39,429 nt of DNA from Candidatus Bilamarchaeaceae archaeon. Lineage in GTDB: Archaea > Micrarchaeota > Micrarchaeia > Anstonellales > Bilamarchaeaceae. The position numbers and the translations under genes were made by a program. Shown here one piece after another: positions 4,587-27,709 of this stretch (position 1 is the stretch's first letter; every line of letters starts with the position of its first letter). The notes beneath the pieces are model-generated. The model saw only the letters and a list, made by a program, of their open reading frames with translations. It was not told the DNA's origin and ran no database searches. The stretch spans positions 1-39,429 of the forward strand of contig DATDTS010000070.1 in NCBI GenBank assembly GCA_035290745.1, read 5' to 3'.

Positions 4587-5903
4587 ATGTTTAAAGTAGT
4601 TAAATTTGGGGGAAGTTCATTAGCATCTGCTGACCTATTCAAACAAGTTGCAGAAATCATTCAATCAGATAAAGACAGAAAAGTCGTTGTAGTTTCAGCA
4701 CCTGGAAGATCAAATCCAAACGATTCTAAAACAACTGACCTGCTAATTAAAATCTCTGAAAATGTTTTAAGTGGGAAGGCATATTCCAAAGAATTTGATG
4801 AAATTAAAGAGAGATTAATTAATTTGGAAAAAGAACTAGATCCTAAAACACCTGTTGCAAATTTAATGACGAGTGAACTTCAAAAAAGAATTAAGAAAAG
4901 GGAAAAAAACGCAATTATTGCATTAGGTGAAGAATTTTCAGCAAGGCTTTTAGCTGATTATCTGGAGGGTTCTGTTTATTTAGATCCAAAAGATGCTAAT
5001 TTTCTGATTGATGAAACCCCCTATGGGAAAAGATATGTACCAAAATCATCATTTTTCTCAATTAGACAGGTATTCAATAAATTAAAAGATAAAATAGTTA
5101 TTTTTCCTGGTTTTTTTGGAATTGATTCAAGGGGAAGAATAAGGGTACTTCAAAGGGGTGGAAGCGATTACACAGCATCAATCCTATCAGTTATTTTAAA
5201 TGCAGATTTACATGAGAATTTCACTGATGTTGATGGTATCTCAGTTGTTGAACCTGATATTCTGCCAGATACAGAGAAAATAAGATTTATGTCACTTTAT
5301 GAATTAAGCGAATTAACCTTAGATGGGTCTTTTGGTGTTTTTCAGGATTTTGCAGTTGCCCCTCTTGCGCGAAATAAAATTCAAATTCATGTTTTATCTA
5401 CAAAATTGCCAAAAGGTGAAGGGACAAGAATTGTTGAAACTTTACCTAATAATTTACCTAAAATAAGAGGAATTGCCTGTAAAAAAGACTTTGTAATATT
5501 TGATATTTTCAAATATGGTCTTGATCAGGAAATCGGCCTAAAACTAGAATTAGAAAAAATATTCGCAAATCACAAGCTCTCAGTTGGTCGTGTTCCAAGT
5601 TCTTTGAATTCAATGTCCATTATTCTGTCATGTAAATTGGATCTTTCAACCCTAAGTCAGGAAATAAAAGATGCAGTTAAACCAGATGAGCTAAGAGTTA
5701 TCAATGATGTTGCTTTGGTTTCAGTTGTAGGGGAGGAACTTGAAAAAACAAAAGGAGTTGGAATGAGAATCCTAAAATCAATTTCTGATCATGATATAAA
5801 CATTCTCAAGGCAATGTTTGATGGTATCAACTTCGTTTGTGTTATTCCAAATAATGAAGCAAAAAAAGCTGTAAAAGCAATTTATGAGGAGTTTTTTGCT
5901 TAG
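4587..5903 (+). CDS. aspartate kinase
   Basis: Amino-acid-kinase N-terminus VVKFGGSSLA and VVVVSAPGRSN..TTD. C-terminal ACT-like repeats (VALVSVVGEEL.., INFVCVIPNNEA). ATG at 4587 is preferred over the TTG at 4572 given in the track. Confidence 0.85.
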   Translation: MFKVVKFGGSSLASADLFKQVAEIIQSDKDRKVVVVSAPGRSNPNDSKTTDLLIKISENVLSGKAYSKEFDEIKERLINLEKELDPKTPVANLMTSELQKRIKKREKNAIIALGEEFSARLLADYLEGSVYLDPKDANFLIDETPYGKRYVPKSSFFSIRQVFNKLKDKIVIFPGFFGIDSRGRIRVLQRGGSDYTASILSVILNADLHENFTDVDGISVVEPDILPDTEKIRFMSLYELSELTLDGSFGVFQDFAVAPLARNKIQIHVLSTKLPKGEGTRIVETLPNNLPKIRGIACKKDFVIFDIFKYGLDQEIGLKLELEKIFANHKLSVGRVPSSLNSMSIILSCKLDLSTLSQEIKDAVKPDELRVINDVALVSVVGEELEKTKGVGMRILKSISDHDINILKAMFDGINFVCVIPNNEAKKAVKAIYEEFFA

Positions 5904-6019
5904 AATCTACATTCATCGTCTTTTATCGAACTAGGTTACGATCATATTTATAAATCTTATTAACACCATTTTCTATGCTTCTTTATATCCTAAATAATCT
6001 GTTAGATATGGTGATAAGT

Positions 6020-7234
6020 ATGTCTGAAAAAATATCTATGAAAGATGGCAAATTGCATGTGCCTGATATGCCAACTATTCCTTATATCTCTGGTGATGGG
6101 ATTGGTGTTGACATTTGGCCAGTTGTCCAAAAAATAGTAGATTCTGCTGTTCATAAAGCATATAAAGGAAAGAAAAAAATTAACTGGAAAAAGGTTTTAG
6201 CAGGGGATGAAGCAAATGAAAAGCTTGGTACCTTTTTGCCTGATGATACAATTAACTCAATTAAAGAGTATTTAGTTGCAATAAAAGGCCCTTTAACAAC
6301 TCCAGTAGGTGGCGGCCACAGATCCTTAAACGTGACTATGCGCCAAGTCTTGGACTTATACTGCTGTGTAAGGCCAGTTAGATGGTTCAATGGTGTTCCA
6401 AACCCAATGAAATCTCCTGAAAAACTTAATGTTGTAATATTCAGGGAAAATACAGAAGATGTTTATTCTGGTATTGAATTCAAGCAAGGAACAGAAGAAG
6501 CAAAAAAAGTTATTGATTTTATATCAGCTTTTGGCAAGAAAATAAGGCCTGATTCAGGTGTTGGAGTCAAACCAATTTCAATAACCGGAACTAAAAGATT
6601 AGTTGAAGCTGCAATTAATTATGCGATTAATAACAAGAAAAACATTGTCACTTTAGTTCACAAGGGAAATATCATGAAATTTACCGAAGGCTCATTTAGA
6701 GAATGGGGTTATGAAGTAGCTAAGGAAAAATTCGCTGATAAGATAATCACAGAACAAGAAGTCCTTGAGAAACATGAAGGTAAAATTCCACATGGAAAAA
6801 TAATGATAAACGATAGGATTGCAGATGCAATGTTCCAACAATTATTATTACGGCCAGATGAATACCAAGTAATTGCCACAATGAACCTTAATGGTGATTA
6901 TATAAGTGATGCATGTGCTGCACAGGTTGGTGGTTTGGGAATTGCACCAGGTGCAAATATAAACTACAAAACAGGACATGCATTATTTGAGGCAACTCAT
7001 GGAACTGCCCCAAAACATGCAGGTCAGGATAAAGTTAACCCAGGTTCATTACTTCTTTCAGCGGTTATGATGCTTGAATATTTAGGTTGGAAAGAAGCAG
7101 CACGAAGTGTTGAAAGTGCATTTGAGAAAACAATTGATAAAAAAATAGTAACCTACGATTTAGCAAGGCAAATGGAAGGTGCAAAAGAGGTAAAATGCTC
7201 AGAATTCGGTAATCATATCATCTCTAACCTGTGA
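6020..7234 (+). CDS. icd: isocitrate dehydrogenase (NADP-type, prokaryotic homodimeric family)
   Basis: Motifs [28 protein letters not shown] and [27 protein letters not shown]. The ATG at 6020 ([15 protein letters not shown]) fits the family N-terminus better than 5975. Confidence 0.9.
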
Positions 7235-7239
7235 GAAAA

Positions 7240-7482
7240 ATGGTAACTATTGATTTAGCTTTAACTGAAGCATGTCAAACTATAAAATCTATAGCACTTT
7301 TCTTTTTAGTTATCTTTCTTATTCAAACTTTTATAGTTTATATAGAGGGAAAAGAAAAAGCACACAAAAAATGGCTTCTGCCAGCGGCTGTTGTTTTTTT
7401 ACTTTTATTAGTTTACCTCTTTACACAAAATATACTGAATATGATTGCAGGAATTGTAAAATTAGAATTAGCTCAATGTTAA
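7240..7482 (+). CDS. small two-helix membrane protein, hypothetical
   Basis: Hydrophobic ORF between icd and aclB. ATG at 7240 lies inside the GTG-started track ORF. No homology recognised. Confidence 0.3.
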   Translation: MVTIDLALTEACQTIKSIALFFLVIFLIQTFIVYIEGKEKAHKKWLLPAAVVFLLLLVYLFTQNILNMIAGIVKLELAQC

Positions 7483-7492
7483 AGAAATTAAG

Positions 7493-8797
7493 GTGATACC
7501 TATTGCAAGAAGAAAAATAAGAGAAATTGATGGTCGAAATATGTTTGGTGGCTACTTTAATATTCCTCTAGATGGGGTTTTAGTTTCTCAAGAAACAGAT
7601 ATTGAGAACCTTCCTGCAAAATATTACTGGTTAAAATCTAAAAAACTTGTTGTTAAACCAGATATGCTAATAGGAAAAAAAGGAAAGAACAATCTAATCC
7701 TTCTAAATGCTGATTTTTCTCAAGCAAAAAAATTCATTAAAGAAAACATGAATAAGCAAATCACAATTGGTAAAGTAACTGGTAACTTAACGCATTTCAT
7801 AATCCAGCCATTTGTTCCTCATGAGGAAGAATACTTTGTTTCAATTATGAGTGGTAGGGATTCAGACACAATCTACTTTTCTGATAAGGGGGGCGTAGAT
7901 GTAGAAGAAAATTGGGATAAAATAAAAAGCATTTCAGTTCCAATCCTAGGTGAGTTTCCTGAAGTTGAGCTAAAAAGCACTCTCACATCATTTCCAAAGA
8001 ATCATCAAAAACAATTATTTGATTTTATAAAAAGGCTTCACATGTTTTTTGTTGATTATGATTTCTCATACCTTGAATTAAATCCTTTCTCTTTTGTTAA
8101 AAACCTTCCATTACCTCTTGGGTTTGTTGGAGAATTAGATGATTGTGCAGAATACAAGAATTGTAAAAAATGGGGAGATCTAAAATTCCCTCAGAGTTTT
8201 GGGAAAACTCTAACAAAAGAAGAGAATTTCATAAAAGACCTTGACTCAAAAACAGGCGCTTCCCTAAAATTAACTATTCTAAATCCAAATGGGAAGGTTT
8301 GGCCAATGGTTGCTGGCGGTGGAGCATCTGTAATCTACGCTGACACGATAGTTGACCTTGGTTTCAGTAATGAGCTTGCTATTTATGGAGAATACTCCGG
8401 AGACCCTAATGAAGAAGAAACCTATCAATATGCAACAACAATACTTGATCTTATGACAAGAGAAAAAAGAAAAGATGGCAAAATTCTTATAATTGGGGGA
8501 GGAATTGCAAATTTTACTGATGTTGCTAAAACTTTTCAGGGGATTGTAAGAGCATTACGTGATTATAAGGAAAAACTACAGAAAAATAATGTAAAAATAT
8601 ATGTAAGACGTGGAGGCCCGAATTATGAGATTGGTCTTAATCTTATGAAAAAACTCGGAAATGAATTAGGTGTTCCTATGGAAGTATACGGTCCTGAGAC
8701 TCATATGACAAAAATAGTTTCGCTTGCTTTGATGGAATCAGGAATTCAATCAAAAGGGAACGGTAAATCGGTTCTCTCCTTGAATCGTCAAAGGTGA
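7493..8797 (+). CDS. aclB: ATP-citrate lyase, small (SCS-beta-like, ATP-grasp) subunit
   Basis: ATP-grasp and succinyl-CoA-synthetase-beta-like sequence. The N-terminus IARRKIREIDG resembles ACL N-termini as I recall them. Placed directly upstream of aclA with a 4-nt gap. The start is non-ATG (GTG at 7493) and uncertain by a few codons. Confidence 0.8.
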   Translation: MIPIARRKIREIDGRNMFGGYFNIPLDGVLVSQETDIENLPAKYYWLKSKKLVVKPDMLIGKKGKNNLILLNADFSQAKKFIKENMNKQITIGKVTGNLTHFIIQPFVPHEEEYFVSIMSGRDSDTIYFSDKGGVDVEENWDKIKSISVPILGEFPEVELKSTLTSFPKNHQKQLFDFIKRLHMFFVDYDFSYLELNPFSFVKNLPLPLGFVGELDDCAEYKNCKKWGDLKFPQSFGKTLTKEENFIKDLDSKTGASLKLTILNPNGKVWPMVAGGGASVIYADTIVDLGFSNELAIYGEYSGDPNEEETYQYATTILDLMTREKRKDGKILIIGGGIANFTDVAKTFQGIVRALRDYKEKLQKNNVKIYVRRGGPNYEIGLNLMKKLGNELGVPMEVYGPETHMTKIVSLALMESGIQSKGNGKSVLSLNRQR

Positions 8798-8801
8798 TAT
8801 T

Positions 8802-10622
8802 ATGAAAGATTTATTTACAGATAAAACTCAGTGTTTCATATACAATCTAAAACCAATTCCAATTCAACGAATGCTTGATTTTGATTATCTTTGCAGGAGA
8901 ACAACACCAAGTGTAGTAGCTGTTATTGCACCAGGTAAAGCAGGCTCTCTCAAAGCTTTTTTTGGTGCAAAAGAAATATTAATTCCAGTTTATGATAGCA
9001 TAAAAGAAGCTGTAAAACTAAATCCTTCTGTTGATGTTTTTGTAAATTTTGCATCTTTTAGAAGTGCTTATGACTCTTCTTTGGAGGCACTTGAGTCCGA
9101 TTCGATCAAAACTGTTGCAATTATTGCTGAAGGAATTCCAGAAAGACTAACCAAACAGCTTATAGCAGTTGCAAAGAAAAAGAACAAATGTATTATAGGC
9201 CCTGCAAGTGTTGGTGGGTTATCAGCAGGTAAATTTAGAATAGGAAATACTGCTGGAACAATAGAAAATATAATCGCATGCAAGCTTTATCGGCCAGGCT
9301 CAGTTGGTTTTGTATCAAAATCCGGAGGCCTTTCAAATGAAATGTTTAATGTTATCTCAAGAAATGCTGATGGAATTTACGAAGGAATTGCAATTGGTGG
9401 GGATGCATATCCTGGTTCAAGATTAATAGATCACATCTTACGATTTGAGAAAATTCCAGATATAAAAATGATTGTTGCACTTGGAGAAGTTGGAGGTACC
9501 GAGGAATATGAAATTACAGATGCACTGAAAACTAACAAAATTACTAAACCAGTTGTGATGTGGGTTACTGGAACCTGTGCAAAAGTTTTCCCTGGAGAAG
9601 TCCAATTTGGGCATGCTGGTGCAAAAACCGGCGATGAGAAGGGCTCTGCTGATGCAAAGAACTCTGCCCTAAGAGAAGCAGGAGTTATCGTTCCAGATTC
9701 TTATCAGGATTTTGATGTCAAAATAAAACATACTTTTGATTCTTTGAAAAAACAAGGAAAAATAAAAGAAATCAAAGAACCCGGATTTCCAGAAATGCCT
9801 TTGGAATATACAGTTGCATTAAAGCAGGGTAAGATAAGAAAAGCAACAAACTTTATATGTACAACCTCTGATGATCGCGGTGATGAGCCACATTATGCCG
9901 GAATTCCTATGACTAAAATGATTGAGGAGAATTATTCATTAGGAGATGTTATTTCACTTTTATGGTTTAGAAAAAGACTTCCGTCATATGCAAGTAAATT
10001 TATTGAAACTGTTCTATTGATAGTAGCTGATCATGGCCCATGTGTAAGTGGTGCACATAATGCTATTGTCTCATCAAGAGCTGGAAAAGATCTTGTTTCT
10101 TCTCTTTGTTCTGGTTTATTAACCATTGGTCCAAGATTTGGTGGAGCAATTGATGATTCTGCGCGGTTCTTTAAACATGCTTGTGATTCAAAAACCCAAC
10201 CAGACGAATTTGTTGAAGACATGAAGAAAAAAGGGATCAACATTCCTGGAATTGGCCATAGAATCAAATCAGCAAAGAACCCTGACAAAAGAGTTGAGAT
10301 ACTTAAAAATTATGCAAAAAAGCATTTTCCACATACAAAATATTTGGATTATGCTCTTTTAGTTGAAAATGAAACACTAAAGAAAGGTGACAACCTTATA
10401 TTAAATGTCGATGGCACCATTGCAGTTTTATTTTTGGATTTGATTGATGGATGTAAGATTTTTTCAAATGAAGAATTTGACTCTATTGTTGATGTTGGCT
10501 ATTTAAATGGGTTATTTGTTCTGGCTCGTTCAATTGGTATCATGGGCCATGTTTTTGACCAAAAGAGGCTGAAACAACCATTGTACAGGCATCCATGGGA
10601 CGATGTATTATTTTTAGAGTAG
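8802..10622 (+). CDS. aclA: ATP-citrate lyase, large (SCS-alpha-like plus citrate-synthase-like) subunit
   Basis: CoA-binding/SCS-alpha part with phosphohistidine loop VQFGHAGAKTG. C-terminal citrate-synthase-like domain ending LYRHPWDDVLFLE. AAAGGTGAT lies before the ATG. Confidence 0.9.
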   Translation: MKDLFTDKTQCFIYNLKPIPIQRMLDFDYLCRRTTPSVVAVIAPGKAGSLKAFFGAKEILIPVYDSIKEAVKLNPSVDVFVNFASFRSAYDSSLEALESDSIKTVAIIAEGIPERLTKQLIAVAKKKNKCIIGPASVGGLSAGKFRIGNTAGTIENIIACKLYRPGSVGFVSKSGGLSNEMFNVISRNADGIYEGIAIGGDAYPGSRLIDHILRFEKIPDIKMIVALGEVGGTEEYEITDALKTNKITKPVVMWVTGTCAKVFPGEVQFGHAGAKTGDEKGSADAKNSALREAGVIVPDSYQDFDVKIKHTFDSLKKQGKIKEIKEPGFPEMPLEYTVALKQGKIRKATNFICTTSDDRGDEPHYAGIPMTKMIEENYSLGDVISLLWFRKRLPSYASKFIETVLLIVADHGPCVSGAHNAIVSSRAGKDLVSSLCSGLLTIGPRFGGAIDDSARFFKHACDSKTQPDEFVEDMKKKGINIPGIGHRIKSAKNPDKRVEILKNYAKKHFPHTKYLDYALLVENETLKKGDNLILNVDGTIAVLFLDLIDGCKIFSNEEFDSIVDVGYLNGLFVLARSIGIMGHVFDQKRLKQPLYRHPWDDVLFLE

Positions 10623-15276: not shown

Positions 15277-16110
15277 ATGCCCTTGGACGGATTTTTAATA
15301 ATCGACAAACCCCCTAAGGTTATTTCGCATGAACTTACTACCTGGTTAAAAAAATTATTGAAAGTTAAAACGGGTCATGCTGGAACTCTTGATCCGGATG
15401 TTACTGGTGTTTTCCCGGTTGCATTAGGCAAATCGACAAAACTTCTCCAATATATTTCTTCGAATGATAAGACCTATATCGGAATTATAAAATTCAAGAA
15501 TAAACAAATCGATGATTCTGAAATTAAAAATCTATTTAGTGAGTTTACTGGGAAAATTTGGCAGGTTCCACCTACAATGAGTGCAGTAAAAAAAGTTAAG
15601 CGAAAAAGAACTGTTTATTCGCTCGATTTTCTTGAAAGAGACGGACCATTTGTTTTATTTAAAACTAAAGTTGAAGCTGGGACTTATATTCGAACCTTAT
15701 GCGAAGATATTGGAAAAAAATGTGGAGGAGCTAGAATGGAGGAACTAAGAAGAATTGCTGTTGGTGATATAAATGAAAAACAAGCAATAAAACTCCACAA
15801 ACTTGTTGATTTTTGTAAATCAGGTAAACTACAAGAGATAATCATCCCACCAGATTCTCTTATAAAATTTCCTAAAGTTGAGATAAATAAGCACACGATC
15901 GAACCTCTTCTAAATGGTGCTACTATAACTAAATATGGAATAGTGAAGTGTGAACGTTTTGGAGTTGAAGAACTAGTTTCAGTTTATTACAACAATACAT
16001 TTGTTGGAGTTGGGTTATCCTTAGTAAGATCAAAAGAAATAGACACAATGAAAAGTGGTTTTGTAATTAAAATGAAAAGAACACATGCTACTAAATCTCA
16101 ACTACTTTAA
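15277..16110 (+). CDS. cbf5: tRNA/rRNA pseudouridine synthase Cbf5/TruB with C-terminal PUA-like domain
   Basis: Catalytic motif GHAGTLDPDVTGVFPV. Also QVPP..SAVK and GTYIRTLCEDIG. Confidence 0.85.
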   Translation: MPLDGFLIIDKPPKVISHELTTWLKKLLKVKTGHAGTLDPDVTGVFPVALGKSTKLLQYISSNDKTYIGIIKFKNKQIDDSEIKNLFSEFTGKIWQVPPTMSAVKKVKRKRTVYSLDFLERDGPFVLFKTKVEAGTYIRTLCEDIGKKCGGARMEELRRIAVGDINEKQAIKLHKLVDFCKSGKLQEIIIPPDSLIKFPKVEINKHTIEPLLNGATITKYGIVKCERFGVEELVSVYYNNTFVGVGLSLVRSKEIDTMKSGFVIKMKRTHATKSQLL

Positions 16111-17251
16111 TTTTTTCCAGAGTTTTTCTAACAACCTCTTCAATACCTATTCTTTCTTCAATCATTTTTATTTGTTCTAATCTAGCTTTGGTAGCTGGGT
16201 GTTTTACTGCAACTAATGAGCAACAATCCTTGTATTCTTCAATTGAAGCGTCGAATGTCCCTACTTTTTGTGCCAGTTCCATAATTTCTTGTTTGTCATA
16301 AGTTGCAAGTGGCCGGTATACTGGTACACTGAAAGCCTCATCAACACAATATAAATTTTCTAAAGTTTGTGATGCAACTTGTGCAATACTATCACCCGTA
16401 ACAACCCCTAGCGCCCCTTCTTCTTTACATAACTTATTTGCAACATTTGCTATAAATCTTCTAAACAAAACAAGTTCAAGTTTAGGTGGGACTTCGAATG
16501 TTTTTTCTTGAAAATCCTGATAGGATACAATATATAAACTGATTTTGTAAGGATGAAATTCTTTCAATATTTTTATTAATTTAACTATTTTTGAATTCAA
16601 AACATCATCATTTCTTGGATAATTATGTATATGTAAAAAATTTACCTCGCACCCTCTTTTCATCATAAGCCAACTTGAAACTGGAGAGTCTATCCCTCCG
16701 GAAAATAAAGATAAAATCTTACCGCTTGATTTTACCGGCATTCCACCAAGGCCTTTTATTTTTTCAAATGAAACTATTATTTTATCATTTAATATCTCTA
16801 CAAATATCTTTTTTTCAGGTTTTTTTAAATCTATTTCGATTCCGTTTGCTTCAAGCTCCTTACCTATTTTTTTATTTACATCAAGCGAGGTTGCTTGAAA
16901 CTTTTTGTCCGATCTCTTAGTATCAATTTTAACTTTTTTGCCATTCAAATGTTCTTTTGCATAATCCAAAATAAGCTTTGTCACCTTTTCTAAATCTTTT
17001 TCAATTACATAAGCAAAAGAGAACCAGCTAATACCAAAAACCTTATTTAGCTTTTTTTCTATCTCTTCCTTATTGCTTTTTTCATTTAAGTAAATAATTA
17101 TTCTTGTTTCTTTTCTTTCTATTTTCTCGTATTCTATTCCATCTAAAGCCGTTTCTATATTATACTTTAACCTATTCTCAAAACTAGCCTTATTCTTTCC
17201 TTTTAATGACAATTCTCCATAATGTACGTTAAATATTTCCATAATAATCAA
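16091..17251 (-). CDS. thiI: tRNA 4-thiouridine synthase ThiI (THUMP plus PP-loop ATPase)
   Basis: PP-loop SGGIDSPV with an N-terminal THUMP-like region. ATGs at 17251 and 17242 are both possible. The 3' end overlaps cbf5 convergently by 20 nt. Confidence 0.85.
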   Translation of the reverse strand: MIIMEIFNVHYGELSLKGKNKASFENRLKYNIETALDGIEYEKIERKETRIIIYLNEKSNKEEIEKKLNKVFGISWFSFAYVIEKDLEKVTKLILDYAKEHLNGKKVKIDTKRSDKKFQATSLDVNKKIGKELEANGIEIDLKKPEKKIFVEILNDKIIVSFEKIKGLGGMPVKSSGKILSLFSGGIDSPVSSWLMMKRGCEVNFLHIHNYPRNDDVLNSKIVKLIKILKEFHPYKISLYIVSYQDFQEKTFEVPPKLELVLFRRFIANVANKLCKEEGALGVVTGDSIAQVASQTLENLYCVDEAFSVPVYRPLATYDKQEIMELAQKVGTFDASIEEYKDCCSLVAVKHPATKARLEQIKMIEERIGIEEVVRKTLEKIKVVEI

Positions 17252-17257
17252 TTAATA

Positions 17258-17365
17258 AATTAAAAACGCTGAGGGCCAGATCGGAACCGCAGGGGGACAC
17301 CCCCTTCAGTTTGACGCTCTTCCTGATTTCCCCGACTTTTGAATTAAAAACGCTGAGGGCCAGAT
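17258..17365 (-). repeat. direct duplication (24/24 nt, 84-nt spacing) of the tRNA 3' exon plus oligo-T terminator
   Basis: AATTAAAAACGCTGAGGGCCAGAT occurs at 17258-17281 and again at 17342-17365. On the minus strand each copy reads AUCUGGC-CCUCAGC-G-UUUUUAAUU. Confidence 0.9.
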
Positions 17366-17644
17366 TTTCAACATTGCACCTCTTGGTTGCAAGGGGTGCG
17401 GGGCCCGCTGGGGTCCTGCTTTGAACTGGCGATCCTTTCGGACACGCTTCCCGAACCGCTGGGAAACTACGTTTCCCCTCGGTTTGAGGTTCCCGATGGA
17501 ATTCCATTCCATGGGCCCATTGAACACGGTTCAATTGGGCTTCCTGATCCCCTTCCTTTTGGGATTCAGAAAAAGTTCCAGGCCTACGCTTCTAATTGAA
17601 GATTCAATTAAAATGTGCGCACTACCAGGTTATGCGACCTCAGC
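17351..17644 (-). tRNA. interrupted class II tRNA gene, best reading tRNA-Ser(GGA), 294-nt locus with at least two long insertions
   Basis: Minus strand. The acceptor stem GCUGAGG (17644-17638) pairs 7/7 with CCUCAGC (17358-17352). Discriminator G at 17351 is followed by U5. U8 is present. The D arm is canonical: GCAU-AACCUGGUA-GUGC (17635-17619). The T stem GCCAG (17430-17426) is followed by UUCAAA, then a 55-nt insertion, then U-CUGGC (17364-17359). The only canonical anticodon arm is AUGGA-AUGGAAU-UCCAU (17512-17496), with anticodon at 17505-17503. The variable-arm region is unresolved. Confidence 0.5.
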
Positions 17645-17655
17645 GAATGAAATGA

Positions 17656-17694
17656 GCTGAGGGAATTGAACAAGCAGTTCAATAAGACCTCAGC
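17656..17694 (-). other. 39-nt leader minihelix copying the acceptor strands of the downstream tRNA
   Basis: The minus strand reads GCUGAGG-UCUU-AUUGAAC-UGCUU-GUUCAAU-UC-CCUCAGC. An 11-nt spacer UCAUUUCAUUC (17655-17645) follows, then tRNA position 1 at 17644. Confidence 0.6.
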
Positions 17695-17891
17695 ATGAAC
17701 TTTCATTAGTCTGCACCTATGCTAAAGTTCAATCAAACTTCCAAGGGCAAGACTAATAAAAAACTCCCTAAGCAAAGAGAGTTTAATCAAAAGTGAGGAA
17801 AAACGTTTTTAATATGCTTGTTTTTCTTCTACATCCAAAAGTTACATAATCTATTTAATCCTTATCAATGAAATACCTTAAGTTGAATCTT

Positions 17892-19130
17892 ATGTCTGAT
17901 TTAAAAAAAACTGATGAAGCAATTTATAAACTGGTTCAGGATGAGTTACATTACGAACAAAAAACACTAAGGCTAATCCCATCTGAGAACTATGCATCAA
18001 AAGCAGTCTTAGAAGCTACAGGTTCTGTTTTTGCTAATAAATACGCAGAAGGTTACCCTCATAAAAGATACTATGCAGGACAAAAATATATTGATATGGT
18101 TGAAGATCTGGCAATTGAAAGAGCAAAAAAATTATTTGGGGTGAAATTTGCAAATGTTCAGCTAAATTCCGGTTCTCCTGGAAATATGGCAGTGTATTAT
18201 TCACTTATGAATCATGGAGATACATTCATGGGTTTGGAATTATCTCATGGTGGCCATATAACCCATGGTTTGAAAATTAATTTCTCCGGAAGTGAATATA
18301 ATGCGGTTTCTTACCAGCTTAACAAAAAAACCGAGAAATTAGATTTTGATGAAATCCGGAAACTTGCTGAGCAACATAAACCAAAATTAATTGTTTGTGG
18401 TTATACTGCTTACCCATATCAAGTTGATTTTAAACAATTTAGAGAGATTTGTGACGAGATTGGAGCTTATTTACTTGCAGATATTTCACATATTGCAGGT
18501 TTGATTGTTGGTGGGGTCCATCCATCACCAGTTGGAGTTGCAGATGTAATTATGACTACTACTCATAAAACATTAAGAGGCCCTAGAGGAGCCGTAATAC
18601 TAACAAATAATGAAGAAATTGCTACTAAAATAGATAAAGCAGTTTTTCCTGGGTTACAGGGTGGTCCACATATCCATTCAATTGCTGCAAAGGCGGTTTG
18701 TTTTCATGAAGCAATGCAGCCAGAATTCAAGAATTACACTCATCAAATTGTAAAAAATGCAAAAGCATTGGCTCATCACCTTTCTTCTTTAGGTTTGAGA
18801 TTAGTTGGAGGGGGAACCGAAACTCACCTAATTTTGGTTGATGTAATGTCCTCAAAAAATATTACAGGGAAAAAAGCTCATGAAGCATTAGAAGAAGCTG
18901 GAATTATTGTTAATAAAAATACCATTCCATACGACACTCAAAAACCGTTTATTGGTTCAGGAATAAGAATCGGAACTCCTTCTCTTACCACGCGTGGAAT
19001 GAAGGAAACTGAGATGAAACTTGTTGCAGAACTAATGGTAAGAGTTCTTGATAATGTTGATGATGCTAAATTAAAGGAAGAGGTAAGAAAAGAAGTTGAA
19101 GAGTTATGTTCAAAGTTTCCAATTTACTAG
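17892..19130 (+). CDS. glyA: serine hydroxymethyltransferase
   Basis: Motifs LIPSENYAS and TTTHKTLRGPRG (PLP lysine). The ATG at 17892 (MSDLKKTDEAI..) fits the family N-terminus. The track start at 17868 is possible. Confidence 0.9.
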   Translation: MSDLKKTDEAIYKLVQDELHYEQKTLRLIPSENYASKAVLEATGSVFANKYAEGYPHKRYYAGQKYIDMVEDLAIERAKKLFGVKFANVQLNSGSPGNMAVYYSLMNHGDTFMGLELSHGGHITHGLKINFSGSEYNAVSYQLNKKTEKLDFDEIRKLAEQHKPKLIVCGYTAYPYQVDFKQFREICDEIGAYLLADISHIAGLIVGGVHPSPVGVADVIMTTTHKTLRGPRGAVILTNNEEIATKIDKAVFPGLQGGPHIHSIAAKAVCFHEAMQPEFKNYTHQIVKNAKALAHHLSSLGLRLVGGGTETHLILVDVMSSKNITGKKAHEALEEAGIIVNKNTIPYDTQKPFIGSGIRIGTPSLTTRGMKETEMKLVAELMVRVLDNVDDAKLKEEVRKEVEELCSKFPIY

Positions 19131-20030
19131 TATATCAACTATCTCTTCTCTAGTTTTAGCTGAACAAACCTTATCTCTTAATTTTCTGGCACCTTGAATT
19201 CCTTTAATAAATTGGAGTGCTTGGCCTTTTATATCTCCTGAATTCCTTCTGATGTTCTTTTCATCAACGATTTTTATATAATCTTGAAATGCCTTGATTC
19301 TCATTTCTGGTGTAATCTCAAAATCATTCTCTTTTTTGCATTGTGAAAAAACAAATGGATTTCCAAGTGCACCTCTACCAATTAGAACAGCATCACATTT
19401 TGTATACTCAAACATTTTCTTGGCACTAGAATAATTAACAACGTCCCCATTTCCAAACAAAGGGATTGAGATTGCCTGTTTTATCTCTTTTATCTTGTCC
19501 CAATCCGCTTGACCCGCATACCCTTGTCTTAAGGTCCGTGCATGTACCGCAAGTGCTTTTACACCTGTTTTTTCAATGACTTTTGCAATCTCTACAGCGT
19601 TTTCTTTTGTCGATGTTCCCAATCTCATTTTTGCGGTTACCGGTTTTTTTATAGTTGAGACCAACTCCTCAAGAATCTCCTTAATTGTTTGAGGATTATC
19701 TAAAAGTGCTGCACCACCACATTTTTTTGTTATTTTTGGGGCAGGGCAACCAAAATTAACATCTATGACATCTGCCTTTTTCTCTAATTTTTGGGCAGCC
19801 TTTACCATTACTTCAGGATATGGCCCAAAAATCTGGATTGCACATGGCCTTTCTTCTTCTGAAATGAAAGTCATTTCTTCGGTTTTCCAGTTATCCCTAA
19901 CTACTGCTTCAGCTGAAACAAATTCTGTGACAACATAATCTGCCCCATACCTCTTGCATAATAATCTAAAGGCAGCATCAGTAAAACTAGCCATTGGAGA
20001 TAGTATATACCTTATATTGGAAAAATCCAT
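19110..20030 (-). CDS. dus: tRNA-dihydrouridine synthase (Dus family, FMN TIM barrel)
   Basis: Motifs ILSPMASFTD, IDVNFGCPAPKI, AVHARTLRQGY and NGDV. Convergent 21-nt overlap with glyA. Confidence 0.8.
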   Translation of the reverse strand: MDFSNIRYILSPMASFTDAAFRLLCKRYGADYVVTEFVSAEAVVRDNWKTEEMTFISEEERPCAIQIFGPYPEVMVKAAQKLEKKADVIDVNFGCPAPKITKKCGGAALLDNPQTIKEILEELVSTIKKPVTAKMRLGTSTKENAVEIAKVIEKTGVKALAVHARTLRQGYAGQADWDKIKEIKQAISIPLFGNGDVVNYSSAKKMFEYTKCDAVLIGRGALGNPFVFSQCKKENDFEITPEMRIKAFQDYIKIVDEKNIRRNSGDIKGQALQFIKGIQGARKLRDKVCSAKTREEIVDILVNWKL

Positions 20031-20149: not shown

Positions 20150-22432
20150 ATGGTAAACGTGGCAGTTGCATCCAGATCTGAGGCTCAAGGTTCAAACTCT
20201 CAACCCCATAGAAGTCGTTTAAGAAGAGCATTTCCAACTATTCCTGATATATTACAATCAAGACGCGTAAGAAAGTTATACGAGGAAGCATACTTTTCAG
20301 CTAGAGATATTGATTTTTTGAGACAAGTTGTAGATAAAGGACATGGAAACAAGAAAGTTGCTCTATTTTTGATTGACCTTTTGGATAAACATTCTGATCC
20401 AAGTGAAGCCCTTTTAGCAAAAGGAATTAGAACTCAATTTGTTAAACTTTATGAAACTCTCTCTCAAAGAGATCAAGCTAAAGTGTTTAAACAATTAGCA
20501 GGAAAATTTGCAACTGTTGATTATCTCTGCTCACAAATATCTGTTCGAGGAAATTCTGATGATGTTAATTTAGTTCTTTCTGTTGCAACTGCTTCAGCTG
20601 GAAATGCAAGAGTTGCTGTTCAAGTTTTGCAAATTGTTAAGAAAATGACTACTTATAATGTTAGAAACTTAATTCGTTTAGCTGATACAAATCCAACTGA
20701 ATTGGATGCTATTGAGCATATTCAGGCTAAGAGAGATGCTGAAATCATTAAAGGCACAAGAGAATCAAAACAAGATGATAAGATAACAGATGATGAAATT
20801 GCTATAACCAGAAGAGAACTAAAAGAAAAAGCAGAGCAAGCAAATGCTAGAGCCAGAGAGATTCAAGCAAGTCTAACTTCATTTACCAATCAATTTTCCT
20901 TTAGGCTTACTCAAATATTTATTGGTATTTTTGCTTCTGAAGGCCTATCCCAAAAAGAGATATACTCTCTTTTTGGTAGAGTTATTAAAGAATTTCTAGC
21001 TTCAACAAGACCAGATCGCGTTCAAGAAGTATATGCATCAAGACTTGGTAGAGCTTTGGAATATGTCGGTAATCACTGTGGTATTGTTTATGCTCAAATG
21101 CTTGACGATCTTGACGGAACGTTACAACCTTTATATCGTAGACAAGAAGAAGTTATTGAGAACAGATTTGATAGATACAAAGATAGAACTATTCTAAGAC
21201 TAGTCTGCGCAAGGGTATCATGGTCATTTGATAAGCCTATGGTTGACATGCCTGTTGATGAAATTCAAGATATTCCTGCGACTAAAAAATTTAAACAAGT
21301 TAATGTTAAGAGAAAAACAATTGAATTTTTTGATACACTATTTAAGAATGATGCTACAGCTAGTTTTGCAATTGAAGCAATGCTTAGTGTTCCAATAGGA
21401 AGACAACATCTTGATGAACTAGCTTTAACTTCTGGTGATCGGCTTATACAAATCATGAGTAAAATGAACGAGGAACAAATAAAAGAAACATTGGTAGGGT
21501 GGGTTTTTCCAATCGGAAGAACAGAACAAGCAGAACCTCAAGCTTATAACCCTAATCAAGCAACAAGAGCAGTTCTTGCATTTAATATTATCCAAGCTAG
21601 ACCTGTTTCTAATGAATTAAAAAATGCTGCATTAAGTCAAATCTCTAATCAAAGAGAAGATGTTTTTTCAGCAGCAATTGACGCATGTTTTGCCCATAGA
21701 ATGACAGCAGTTATACCAAGAGTTTATCAAGTAGTTTCTCATGATCACAGATTAGAATGGAAGAGAAAATATGTTGGTTATTTAGTTTTCTTTGCTAGAA
21801 CTGAGAATGAAGAAGCAAAAGCTAGAGTTAAAGATGTTCTAAAAGGACAAGACAAAGTTGCAATAGTAGCTGCAACAGACTATTGCAAAGATTATGCATT
21901 AACATTTGCAATTCCTGAATTATCTAATCTTGCTCTGGCTGGAAGAAGGTCAAAACCATTAATAACAAGAGCAGAAAGAACACTTATCTCATTTGTTAAG
22001 CTTGGAATTGATGAGGCAAATGTGCCAGTAAGAAAAGTTATAAATGGCTTACAAAGAACTGCTTTAATCGGAAGAACCGATGATCAAAGACAAGTTGCAT
22101 TAAATAGATTAATTGAATATTCAGATGGTGGATTAAGTTTTGCTGAACAATCTGTATTGTCAATTTACAGAACTTTAGAAAGACAATCCGAAAGAGGGCA
22201 ACATTGGAAAGCAAAAAGAAAAAGGAACGGAGTTCCAGATAAATTACAAGAGGCAGTAGCTAGAATATATTCTAGAAGAAATGGAAGACCAAATGAAGTT
22301 TCACCAAATCAAAGTCCTTTTCAACCAACAACCGCATCTGCACAAATAGGAATTGTTGTTATTGGCGGAACACCATTCATGGGAATTCTAACCCGTACTG
22401 GAGGAAAAGGTTCTGAAATTCTTGGAGGATAA
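20150..22432 (+). CDS. large all-helical hypothetical protein (760 aa), no recognisable domain
   Basis: Long uninterrupted ORF with an ATG start 25-35 nt downstream of an ATTTATAAATATT box. Arg/Gln/Ala-rich, unlike the Lys/Ile/Asn-rich neighbours. The C-terminal stretch IGIVVIGGTPFMGIL is hydrophobic. Confidence 0.6.
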   Translation: MVNVAVASRSEAQGSNSQPHRSRLRRAFPTIPDILQSRRVRKLYEEAYFSARDIDFLRQVVDKGHGNKKVALFLIDLLDKHSDPSEALLAKGIRTQFVKLYETLSQRDQAKVFKQLAGKFATVDYLCSQISVRGNSDDVNLVLSVATASAGNARVAVQVLQIVKKMTTYNVRNLIRLADTNPTELDAIEHIQAKRDAEIIKGTRESKQDDKITDDEIAITRRELKEKAEQANARAREIQASLTSFTNQFSFRLTQIFIGIFASEGLSQKEIYSLFGRVIKEFLASTRPDRVQEVYASRLGRALEYVGNHCGIVYAQMLDDLDGTLQPLYRRQEEVIENRFDRYKDRTILRLVCARVSWSFDKPMVDMPVDEIQDIPATKKFKQVNVKRKTIEFFDTLFKNDATASFAIEAMLSVPIGRQHLDELALTSGDRLIQIMSKMNEEQIKETLVGWVFPIGRTEQAEPQAYNPNQATRAVLAFNIIQARPVSNELKNAALSQISNQREDVFSAAIDACFAHRMTAVIPRVYQVVSHDHRLEWKRKYVGYLVFFARTENEEAKARVKDVLKGQDKVAIVAATDYCKDYALTFAIPELSNLALAGRRSKPLITRAERTLISFVKLGIDEANVPVRKVINGLQRTALIGRTDDQRQVALNRLIEYSDGGLSFAEQSVLSIYRTLERQSERGQHWKAKRKRNGVPDKLQEAVARIYSRRNGRPNEVSPNQSPFQPTTASAQIGIVVIGGTPFMGILTRTGGKGSEILGG

Positions 22433-24376: not shown

Positions 24377-24488
24377 CGCCCCCACTGGGATTTGAACCCA
24401 GCTTCCAAGATCCGCAATCTTGTGTTCTTTCTGTTTTTCAAGCCTTTAAAATCATAAACTTGGAATATCCAGGCTATACTATGGGGGC
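24377..24488 (-). tRNA. tRNA-Arg(GCG) with a roughly 41-nt insertion at a non-canonical site (between positions 26/27 and 30/31)
   Basis: Minus strand. Acceptor GCCCCCA pairs with UGGGGGC, followed by discriminator G. D arm GUAU-AGCCUGG-AUAU. Intact anticodon arm CAAGA-UUGCGGA-UCUUG with U33 and G37. T arm CUGGG-UUCAAAU-CCCAG. The 41 nt between the D arm and the anticodon arm must be removed to give a 71-nt tRNA. Confidence 0.7.
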
Positions 24489-27330: not shown

Positions 27331-27369
27331 GCAGGGATCTTATTGAACATTTTGTTCAATTCTCCCAGC
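27331..27369 (+). other. 39-nt leader minihelix copying the acceptor strands of the downstream tRNA
   Basis: Reads GCAGGGA-TCTT-ATTGAAC-ATTTT-GTTCAAT-TC-TCCCAGC. An 11-nt spacer AGTTCATTCAT (27370-27380) follows, then tRNA position 1 at 27381. Confidence 0.6.
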
Positions 27370-27380
27370 AGTTCATTCAT

Positions 27381-27709
27381 GCAGGGATGACGGAGCGGTC
27401 AAAAGCTTTTTGGCTACTTATAAACATTTGCCAAAAACCTTGGAAAAAGGCATATTGCAATTCTTTAGTGTGGCTGTCCAAACGTGCTAGGTTGAGGTTC
27501 TTTTGGATTAGCAAGTCCGTTTTTGGACTCGCTTTTCCTAAAAAGCGAGAGCCTAGTGGCTTAGTGCTTGCGAGAAACTTTTGACTTCGGTCATTCATAC
27601 GCCAAAAGTTTCATCAAAAGGCGTAATGTTCGCATAAGTTCGAACCTTCGCCAACTTTGTTGGTGAATTTTTAACGAAGCACAGCGAAGTTAAAACCTCT
27701 CTCCCTGCA
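27381..27709 (+). tRNA. interrupted class II tRNA gene, best reading tRNA-Leu(GAG), 329-nt locus with three long insertions
   Basis: The acceptor stem GCAGGGA pairs 7/7 with TCCCTGC (27702-27708), with discriminator A at 27709. The 5' end GCAGGGATGACGGAGCGGTCAAA has a Leu/Ser-type D loop. D stem ACG closes with CGT only after skipping 79 nt (27404-27482). The anticodon arm is CTAGG-TTGAGG(T) at 27487-27498, closing with CCTAG at 27552-27556 after about 53 nt. The anticodon GAG is at 27494-27496. The long variable arm is TGGCTTAGTGCTTGC. T stem GAGA(27572-27575)+G(27689) pairs with CTCTC after about 113 nt. Predicted mature length is 84 nt. The T loop TTAAAAC is atypical (A at position 56), so the 3' part is the weakest. 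Confidence 0.55.

Follow-up and report, generated by a model that had tools for sequence, protein, structure and literature searches.

The window analysed here is a 39,429-nt stretch of contig DATDTS010000070.1 from a Candidatus Bilamarchaeaceae archaeon, and it contains a GC-rich block of 294 nt, read on the minus strand, at 17351-17644. The block has a G+C content of 52.7%, against a window mean of approximately 34%, and 17401-17700 is the sole 300-nt bin of the window with a G+C fraction of at least 0.50. Four overlapping open reading frames (ORFs) on both strands overlie it and are judged to be spurious. The block folds at -122 kcal/mol (z = -6.7), and none of 200 shuffled versions is as stable. 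It is very probably the tRNA-Ser(GGA) gene of a Micrarchaeota-related DPANN archaeon, and its sequence predicts three bulge-helix-bulge (BHB) introns, at 29/30, 37/38 and 59/60. Genes of this kind are already known, and this one is an extreme new example of a multi-intron archaeal tRNA.

Read on the minus strand, the ends of the block pair as a 7-bp terminal stem, GCUGAGG/CCUCAGC, with G73 and then UUUUU following the 3′ strand. Within this stem lie U8, C9 and the D arm GCAU-AACCUGGUA-GUGC, followed by G. The T arm is split into GCCAG-UUCAAA and U-CUGGC, the halves of which are exactly 55 nt apart. After the D arm, CAC|AUUUU... finds no anticodon-stem partner nearby. Excision of the 31 nt at 17614-17584 joins GUGCGCAC to GCCUGGAA, and the stem strand so produced, CACGC, leads into CUGGAA, a classic Ser(GGA) loop. 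GCGUG, which pairs with this strand, is located 127 nt downstream, where it is succeeded by the class II variable arm UCC-GAAA-GGA-UC and then by the T stem. The anticodon arm assembled in this way, CAC|GC-CUGGAA|A-GCGUG, is divided by the introns at 29/30 and 37/38. Two other anticodon readings were tried and rejected, namely UUCGGGA (17455-17449) as a Pro(CGG) loop and CACAU/UUUAAUU as a Leu(UAA) arm immediately 3′ of the D arm. The partner strands of both are unpaired, and the orthologues described below also exclude them.

The predicted exons, of 30, 8, 29 and 14 nt, join to form an 81-nt class II cloverleaf that ARAGORN calls as tRNA-Ser(gga). Exon 1 (17615..17644, minus strand, as is every feature of this gene) holds the 5′ strand of the acceptor, U8 C9, the D arm, G26 and C27-C29, and it is identical or nearly so in 60 orthologous loci. 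Exon 2 (17576..17583) is the octamer GCCUGGAA, which supplies G30 C31, C32 U33, the anticodon G34 G35 A36, and A37. Exon 3 (17420..17448, 29 nt) contributes A38, the 3′ anticodon strand GCGUG, the variable arm UCCGAAAGGAUC, the 5′ T-stem strand GCCAG and U54-A59. The last exon, of 14 nt (17351..17364), provides U60, the 3′ T-stem strand CUGGC, the 3′ acceptor strand CCUCAGC and G73; CCA is not encoded. The T5 run that comes right after G73 (17346..17350) is likely to be an oligo-T terminator of the kind usual in archaeal transcription. All the serine identity traits are present: anticodon GGA in the loop CUGGAAA, a variable arm of 12 nt (UCC-GAAA-GGA-UC) and G73. The spliced product also keeps the conserved tRNA nucleotides U8, G18 G19, U33, G53-C61 and the T loop UUCAAAU.

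Each of the three introns is associated with a BHB motif. Intron 1 (17584..17614, 31 nt, at 29/30) is of the HBh′ form, with the H helix GCGC/GCGU, the bulges AC|A and AG|G, and an inner hairpin of 10 bp (UUUUAAUUGA/UCAAUUAGAA). Intron 2 (17449..17575, 127 nt) occupies the canonical 37/38 position and is of the hBH form; its outer helix is the anticodon stem, its H helix is CUGG/UCGG and its bulges are AA|C and GA|A. It contains two hairpins that are also kept in a relative, L009, and a lineage-specific insertion of 48 nt. Intron 3 (17365..17419, 55 nt) interrupts the T loop at 59/60 and is likewise hBH, with the T stem as outer helix, UUCA/UGAA as H helix and the bulges AA|G and AA|U. All three junctions carry a 3-4-3 core (3-nt bulge, 4-bp helix, 3-nt bulge), with the cut placed after the second bulge base. 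Shuffled introns yield such a core at the junction in 0.018, 0.089 and 0.065 of trials for introns 1, 2 and 3, giving a joint value of approximately 1e-4. A blind listing of BHB-like pairs in the region returns hundreds of candidates, and it is informative only after the exons have been guessed. No RUGAUGA box of a C/D-box small RNA was seen in the introns by eye; no dedicated search was made.

An earlier note on this DNA, made from the letters alone, had proposed a heavily interrupted Ser-like tRNA spanning exactly 17351-17644. Its description of the locus holds: the GC-rich block, the four ORFs, the minus-strand reading, the 7-bp stem, G73, U5, U8, the D arm and the T stem with its 55-nt gap are all found in the sequence. 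The proposal itself is upheld by the ARAGORN call on the spliced 81-mer and by the orthologues. The insertion that it had placed inside the T loop corresponds to the 55-nt intron at 59/60, which has a BHB core at its junction and is missing from the contiguous T arm of L009.

The comparative data were obtained from a metagenome scan with the D-arm pattern, which returned 67 loci; approximately 60 of these are Ser(GGA) and the rest are tRNA-Ile. Introns were counted, by regular expressions and pairing rules, in the 46 distinct loci of sufficient length; the T-arm counts are approximate. The 29/30 intron is present in four of the 46 and absent from 42, most of which read GTGCGCAC|GCCTGGAA unbroken. 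At 37/38 an intron is found in 41 loci and is absent from five, the flanking sequence being contiguous as GCCTGGAA|AGCGTG in L021, L043 and L067 and as GGCTGGAG|ATCGTG in L027 and L047. The T arm is interrupted in about 24 loci and intact in 19 (L009 and 18 others). Three of the 46 (L043, L027 and L047) are wholly intronless, and the Rfam tRNA model RF00005 matches L043 and L027 at 52 bits. The three other loci with an intron at 29/30 (L045, L056 and L068) have a BHB design like that of intron 1, and only the window gene combines all three interruptions. In all, about 50 metagenomic orthologues confirm the three junctions, and those without the introns show exactly the predicted exon joins.

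The nearest relative that keeps the synteny is L009, from Candidatus Micrarchaeota GCA_043827025.1, in which a syntenic orthologue lies beside thiI (L009:8994-9153; gene order Dus-SHMT ... tRNA-ThiI-Cbf5). This gene carries the 37/38 intron only, its T arm GCCAGTTCAAATCTGGC is contiguous, and its exons are 96% identical to the spliced product of the window. The L009 intron, of 79 nt, is homologous to intron 2 and is without the 48-nt stretch; the part that they share is 85% identical, against a shuffled null of 71 +/- 3%. Across 18 spliced or intronless orthologues, cloverleaf pairing is 100%, nine pairs show compensatory changes, and none of 500 shuffles reaches the observed value. Assemblies of the same species differ by three single-nucleotide polymorphisms (SNPs) within the Ser gene, all of them intronic.

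Several points weigh against a functional, three-intron tRNA-Ser(GGA). All three BHB motifs are of relaxed form (hBH or HBh′), G-U pairs occur in two of the H helices, and intron 1 uses G24-C27 in its H helix, which requires the D stem to open first. Neither EndA nor RtcB occurs among the 36 ORFs of the window. The case is known from DNA, with the spliced product as a prediction, and the 18 orthologues used for covariation were partly chosen for folding as tRNA. ARAGORN is permissive, accepting many alternative deletions of another locus, and the weight of the case therefore lies on the comparative data. The relaxed motifs would also suit a decaying pseudogene, that is, a former tRNA-Ser gene broken by insertions and no longer spliced, as would the partial gene copies on both sides and the position of the gene as the most interrupted of the 46 orthologues. 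This explanation is nevertheless improbable: the exons are intact and nearly identical to those of a distant orthologue, every stem pairs, BHB cores are kept at the three junctions, the strain SNPs spare the exons, and the syntenic position beside thiI is conserved. There is also no second tRNA-Ser(GGA) copy within the window, and GGA is the standard archaeal decoder of UCU and UCC, which likewise counts against a pseudogene.

Two further explanations differ on what the block is or how it is divided. The earlier note had inferred at least three insertions around a contiguous anticodon arm, AUGGA-AUGGAAU-UCCAU, with a first insertion of 105 nt, others in the 65 nt that precede the T stem, and one in the T loop. 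The arm is a perfect hairpin of 5 bp and 7 nt with U33 and A37, and it does read GGA, which is the correct anticodon. It lies, however, at approximately 17496-17512, inside the 48-nt stretch of intron 2 that L009 is missing, and it occurs in no orthologue, all of which have CACGC-CUGGAAA-GCGUG or a near variant. No BHB is present at the junctions that it requires, and 65 nt are left unaccounted for. The number of insertions turns out to be exactly three, with two of them at 29/30 and 37/38 and not where they had been placed; the 105-nt insertion and the 65-nt region do not exist as described, the real introns being 31 and 127 nt. This division of the gene can be given practically no credence. 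The same applies to the idea that the block is another structured RNA, such as archaeal signal recognition particle (SRP) RNA, RNase P RNA or a member of another family, with tRNA-like ends by coincidence. A length of about 300 nt, GC-richness, paired ends and a very stable fold would all fit such an RNA, but the exons make a complete tRNA and the orthologues are without most of the extra sequence. The earlier note had named Rfam as the check on these families. Nowhere in the window does any family attain its gathering score, and a permissive search of 17150-17850 (E <= 10) gives no match overlapping the block, leaving SRP RNA and RNase P RNA unsupported.

On the model of tRNA splicing in other archaea, the following pathway is proposed for the tRNA-Ser(GGA) precursor. 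The transcript would include a short structured leader and would end at the T5 run. A splicing endonuclease of broad specificity would then cut both bulges of each relaxed BHB; by analogy with Micrarchaeum and Crenarchaeota, this enzyme is probably of the epsilon2 or (alpha-beta)2 type. Intron 1 may leave first, which would allow the full anticodon stem to form as the outer helix of the intron 2 BHB. The exons would be joined by an RtcB-type ligase and the introns freed, probably as circles. Removal of the leader and post-transcriptional addition of CCA would complete the tRNA.

A second gene of this type was reached through other copies of the ATTGAAC motif. The predicted tRNA-Leu(GAG) gene lies downstream of rpoD, at 27381-27709 on the plus strand, and is 329 nt long with four introns: 79 nt in the D loop at approximately 20/21, 53 nt at 37/38, 62 nt in the T stem at 51/52 and 51 nt in the T loop at 57/58. 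It includes a micro-exon of 6 nt, AGTTCG. The spliced 84-mer is called as tRNA-Leu(gag), and it is identical at 78 of 84 positions to the intronless gene that L078, from the same Micrarchaeota relative, has after rpoD, and at 75 of 84 to L080. Three of the four introns are found at matching sites in L081. The BHB core is clean at three junctions, and the canonical 37/38 junction has only three of four helix pairs. The published maximum for an archaeal tRNA gene is three introns (PMC4033280, PMC8450103). With its four predicted introns, tRNA-Leu(GAG) exceeds this ceiling.

Both genes are preceded by a small hairpin that copies their own acceptor strands. Upstream of tRNA-Ser, at 17656..17694 on the minus strand, lies a 39-nt minihelix, GCUGAGG-UC-UUAUUGAAC-UGCUU-GUUCAAU-U-CCCUCAGC, with a hairpin of -19.3 kcal/mol and outer arms that replicate the 5′ and 3′ acceptor strands of the tRNA. 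An 11-nt spacer, UCAUUUCAUUC (17645..17655, minus strand), separates it from the tRNA +1. The Leu minihelix, GCAGGGA-TC-TTATTGAAC-ATTTT-GTTCAAT-T-CTCCCAGC, is also of 39 nt (27331-27369, plus strand) and is followed by a similar 11-nt spacer, AGTTCATTCAT, which the Ser spacer resembles; the latter is also conserved with L009 (TCACATTCGTTC). The two leaders share a 25-nt core, TCTTATTGAAC-N5-GTTCAATTC, and differ in their outer arms, GCAGGGA for Leu and GCTGAGG for Ser. A common core with tRNA-specific arms makes a simple duplication of either gene hard to credit.

The arrangement extends to related archaea. The Ser minihelix is 80% identical between the window and L009, and sequence farther out is at chance level. 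By exact counting, a copy of the gene's own acceptor 7-mer occurs upstream in 22 of 53 Ser loci, which represent five acceptor classes, and 7-mers of foreign lineages occur in none of 265 tests. The copies lie at -42 to -113 from +1, mostly at -47 to -65, and the sequence of the inner hairpin varies among lineages with its pairing maintained by compensatory changes. One to three tandem units stand beside certain tRNA genes, each beginning or ending with a copy of the acceptor strand of its own tRNA and containing one or two hairpins. Such units are found upstream of tRNA-Ser (L009, L011-L077), and similar ones lie downstream of tRNA-Ser (L013, L045, L063 and L071) and flank tRNA-Pro(GGG) (L025 and L054) and tRNA-Gln(UUG) (L021 and L038). 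None is present beside the 12 tRNA-Leu(GAG) genes on the contigs of the Ser loci.

On the other side of the window gene, a partial copy of 84 nt (17262..17345, minus strand) ends in an exact 24-nt repeat, ATCTGGCCCTCAGCG + TTTTTAATT, of the 3′ end of the tRNA and its terminator; the repeats are 100% identical and spaced by 84. The interior of this copy resembles a short, L009-like intron 2, and the copy is present in all strain assemblies. The absence of exon 3 means that no tRNA can be made from it. A degenerate counterpart in L009 ends in CTCGGCG + T7.

The hairpin ATTGAAC..GTTCAAT that the earlier note had pointed out within the block is present, at 17516-17538. The underlying palindrome, AAUUGAA(C)...(G)UUCAAUU, occurs four times in 215 nt, at 17584-17614, 17516-17538, 17665-17683 and 17727-17733. 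These sites are the core of intron 1, the 48-nt insertion of intron 2, the leader minihelix and a decayed copy farther upstream. In the window as a whole there are 12 ATTGAAC sites, five of them in the Ser region and two in the Leu leader. This distribution is suggestive of a small hairpin module by which introns are seeded or enlarged.

The upstream hairpin and the downstream 3′-end copy may be non-functional remnants of a duplication or of the integration of a mobile element at the tRNA gene, which is a serious possibility, if somewhat short of an even one. Integrating elements are well known to leave partial tRNA copies behind (PMC9897764). There are also tandem arrays with greater decay in the older copies (L037, L045, L009 and 17700-17790 of the window), and the downstream copy has the look of a 3′ part moved away from an earlier, L009-like allele. 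Nevertheless, no integrase was found in the window, no viral contig matches the 3′-end repeat as a possible phage attachment site (attP), and the 3.5-kb insertion in L009 has no flanking or distant attachment-site (att) repeat. The upstream element is, moreover, conserved with a relative whose flanks have randomised, its inner pairing has been kept by compensation, the distance to +1 is narrow, and one 25-nt core precedes two tRNAs with arms matched to each acceptor. Reading the flanks as att remnants is countered by the lack of integrase or mobile genes and by repeats that are 84 nt apart. An att-site origin of the 3.5-kb insertion in L009 was rejected for want of a flanking repeat. The attC/integron reading of ATTGAAC..GTTCAAT fails on a core that misfits RYYYAAC/GTTRRRY and on an element that is too short.

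Conservation, spacing and the core shared by two tRNAs argue for a function of the minihelix. It is tentatively proposed, as a possibility and not as the probable case, that the Ser and Leu genes form a type of transcription unit that has yet to be described, in which an acceptor-matched minihelix lies before, and in some cases after, a heavily interrupted pre-tRNA, or that they bear the footprint of a mobile hairpin. The outer stem in this proposal co-varies with its own tRNA across lineages, and the inner hairpin is a genome-wide module, TCTTATTGAAC-N5-GTTCAATTC. As a processed leader RNA, the minihelix could recruit or titrate enzymes that recognise acceptor stems, or could shield the long precursor. 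The other possibility is that a small mobile hairpin, which is aimed at tRNA 5′ ends and also seeds introns, left it as a footprint. The literature searched contains no description of a minihelix that is encoded in a genome, matched to a tRNA and placed in its pre-tRNA leader.

The genes around the Ser locus are archaeal and include Cbf5, ThiI, SHMT, Dus, ribosomal proteins, RpoD, Spt5 and FtsZ. The closest named relatives of ThiI and RpoD belong to Candidatus Micrarchaeota, at 58-63% identity, and proteins identical to those of the window are found in metagenomes from Rifle and other groundwater. A ThiI scan of genome contigs gave an unrelated Oscillospiraceae locus as its only match. The tRNA-Ser gene sits amid genes for tRNA modification (15277-20030): Cbf5/TruB (pseudouridine 55), a DusB-like dihydrouridine synthase and ThiI (s4U8; U8 is present in the tRNA). 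The Micrarchaeota relative keeps this neighbourhood (L009 3272-11994). SHMT adjoins the leader region of tRNA-Ser in the window, unlike in L009, where approximately 3.5 kb (5523-8847) with small ORFs without Pfam matches and an aldo-keto reductase lie between SHMT and the tRNA-Ser leader array; no acceptor-copy repeat is present at the far boundary of this insertion. Beside dus in all same-species contigs is an ORF of 760 amino acids (20150-22432, plus strand) with no Pfam or NCBIfam match. Five same-species assemblies (L001-L004 and L008) break in or beside tRNA-Ser, possibly as a result of the repeated acceptor and 3′-end copies, and in two (L006 and L007) the locus is unbroken. At 24377-24488 on the minus strand lies a third interrupted tRNA, which has an uninterrupted T arm and no minihelix. 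ARAGORN with introns reads it as Ile(TAT) with a canonical intron of 42 nt; an alternative reading is Arg(GCG), with the arm CAAGA-UUGCGGA-UCUUG and an intron of approximately 41 nt at 26/27.

These observations have consequences for genome annotation. In its default mode ARAGORN calls no tRNA in the unspliced DNA of the window, so that neither it nor Rfam sees tRNA-Ser(GGA), and gene callers put false ORFs at the locus. Genomes of this lineage will appear to be without tRNA-Ser(GGA) and tRNA-Leu(GAG), which skews inferences on completeness and codon usage. The orthologues, with zero to three introns in Ser and zero to four in Leu among fairly close relatives, offer a rare resolved view of recent intron gain. 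One intron in this series was enlarged by the insertion of a 48-nt hairpin, and another, new one is built on a like hairpin. The acceptor-matched leader hairpins represent an unexplained, testable trait of pre-tRNA architecture.

Among known systems, the nearest is that of Candidatus Micrarchaeum acidiphilum ARMAN-2, in which tRNA-Cys(GCA) has an hBH intron at 59/60 and tRNA-Pro(GGG) has two T-loop introns (Fujishima et al. 2011, PMC3239211). ARMAN-2 has an epsilon2 endonuclease of broad specificity (PMC3239211). The window archaeon shares with it the Micrarchaeota/DPANN lineage, a relaxed hBH motif at the T-loop 59/60 position, multiple introns per tRNA and, presumably, epsilon2 processing. 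ARMAN-2 tRNAs carry one or two introns, whereas the window Ser gene has three, one of 127 nt, and its endonuclease is unseen. Up to three introns per tRNA have been reported in the Thermoproteales (Pyrobaculum and Thermofilum; Sugahara et al. 2008; PMC4033280, PMC8450103). These tRNAs resemble the Ser gene in having up to three BHB introns, canonical and non-canonical, in ordered removal for some, and in being missed by standard tRNA finders. Unlike the window archaeon, the Thermoproteales are Crenarchaeota with an (alpha-beta)2 endonuclease. We know of no description of acceptor-copy flanking hairpins in that group.

The flanks invite comparison with the Thermococcaceae, in which integrated mobile elements leave tRNA gene fragments (van der Gulik et al. 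2023, PMC9897764). In both settings partial copies of tRNA ends adjoin an intact gene. The window copies differ in lying 40-85 nt away and on both sides, in their conserved hairpins, in having no integrase nearby and in a core that is common to two tRNAs. Minihelices composed of an acceptor and a T arm serve as model substrates for several enzymes: RNase P, tRNase Z, the CCA-adding enzyme and certain aminoacyl-tRNA synthetases (for context, see PMC11229368). The upstream element is similar in design, being an acceptor-like stem of 6-7 bp stacked on a hairpin of 7-10 bp. The known minihelices are laboratory constructs or hypothetical ancestors, unlike the element of the window, which is encoded in the genome next to the tRNA that it matches.

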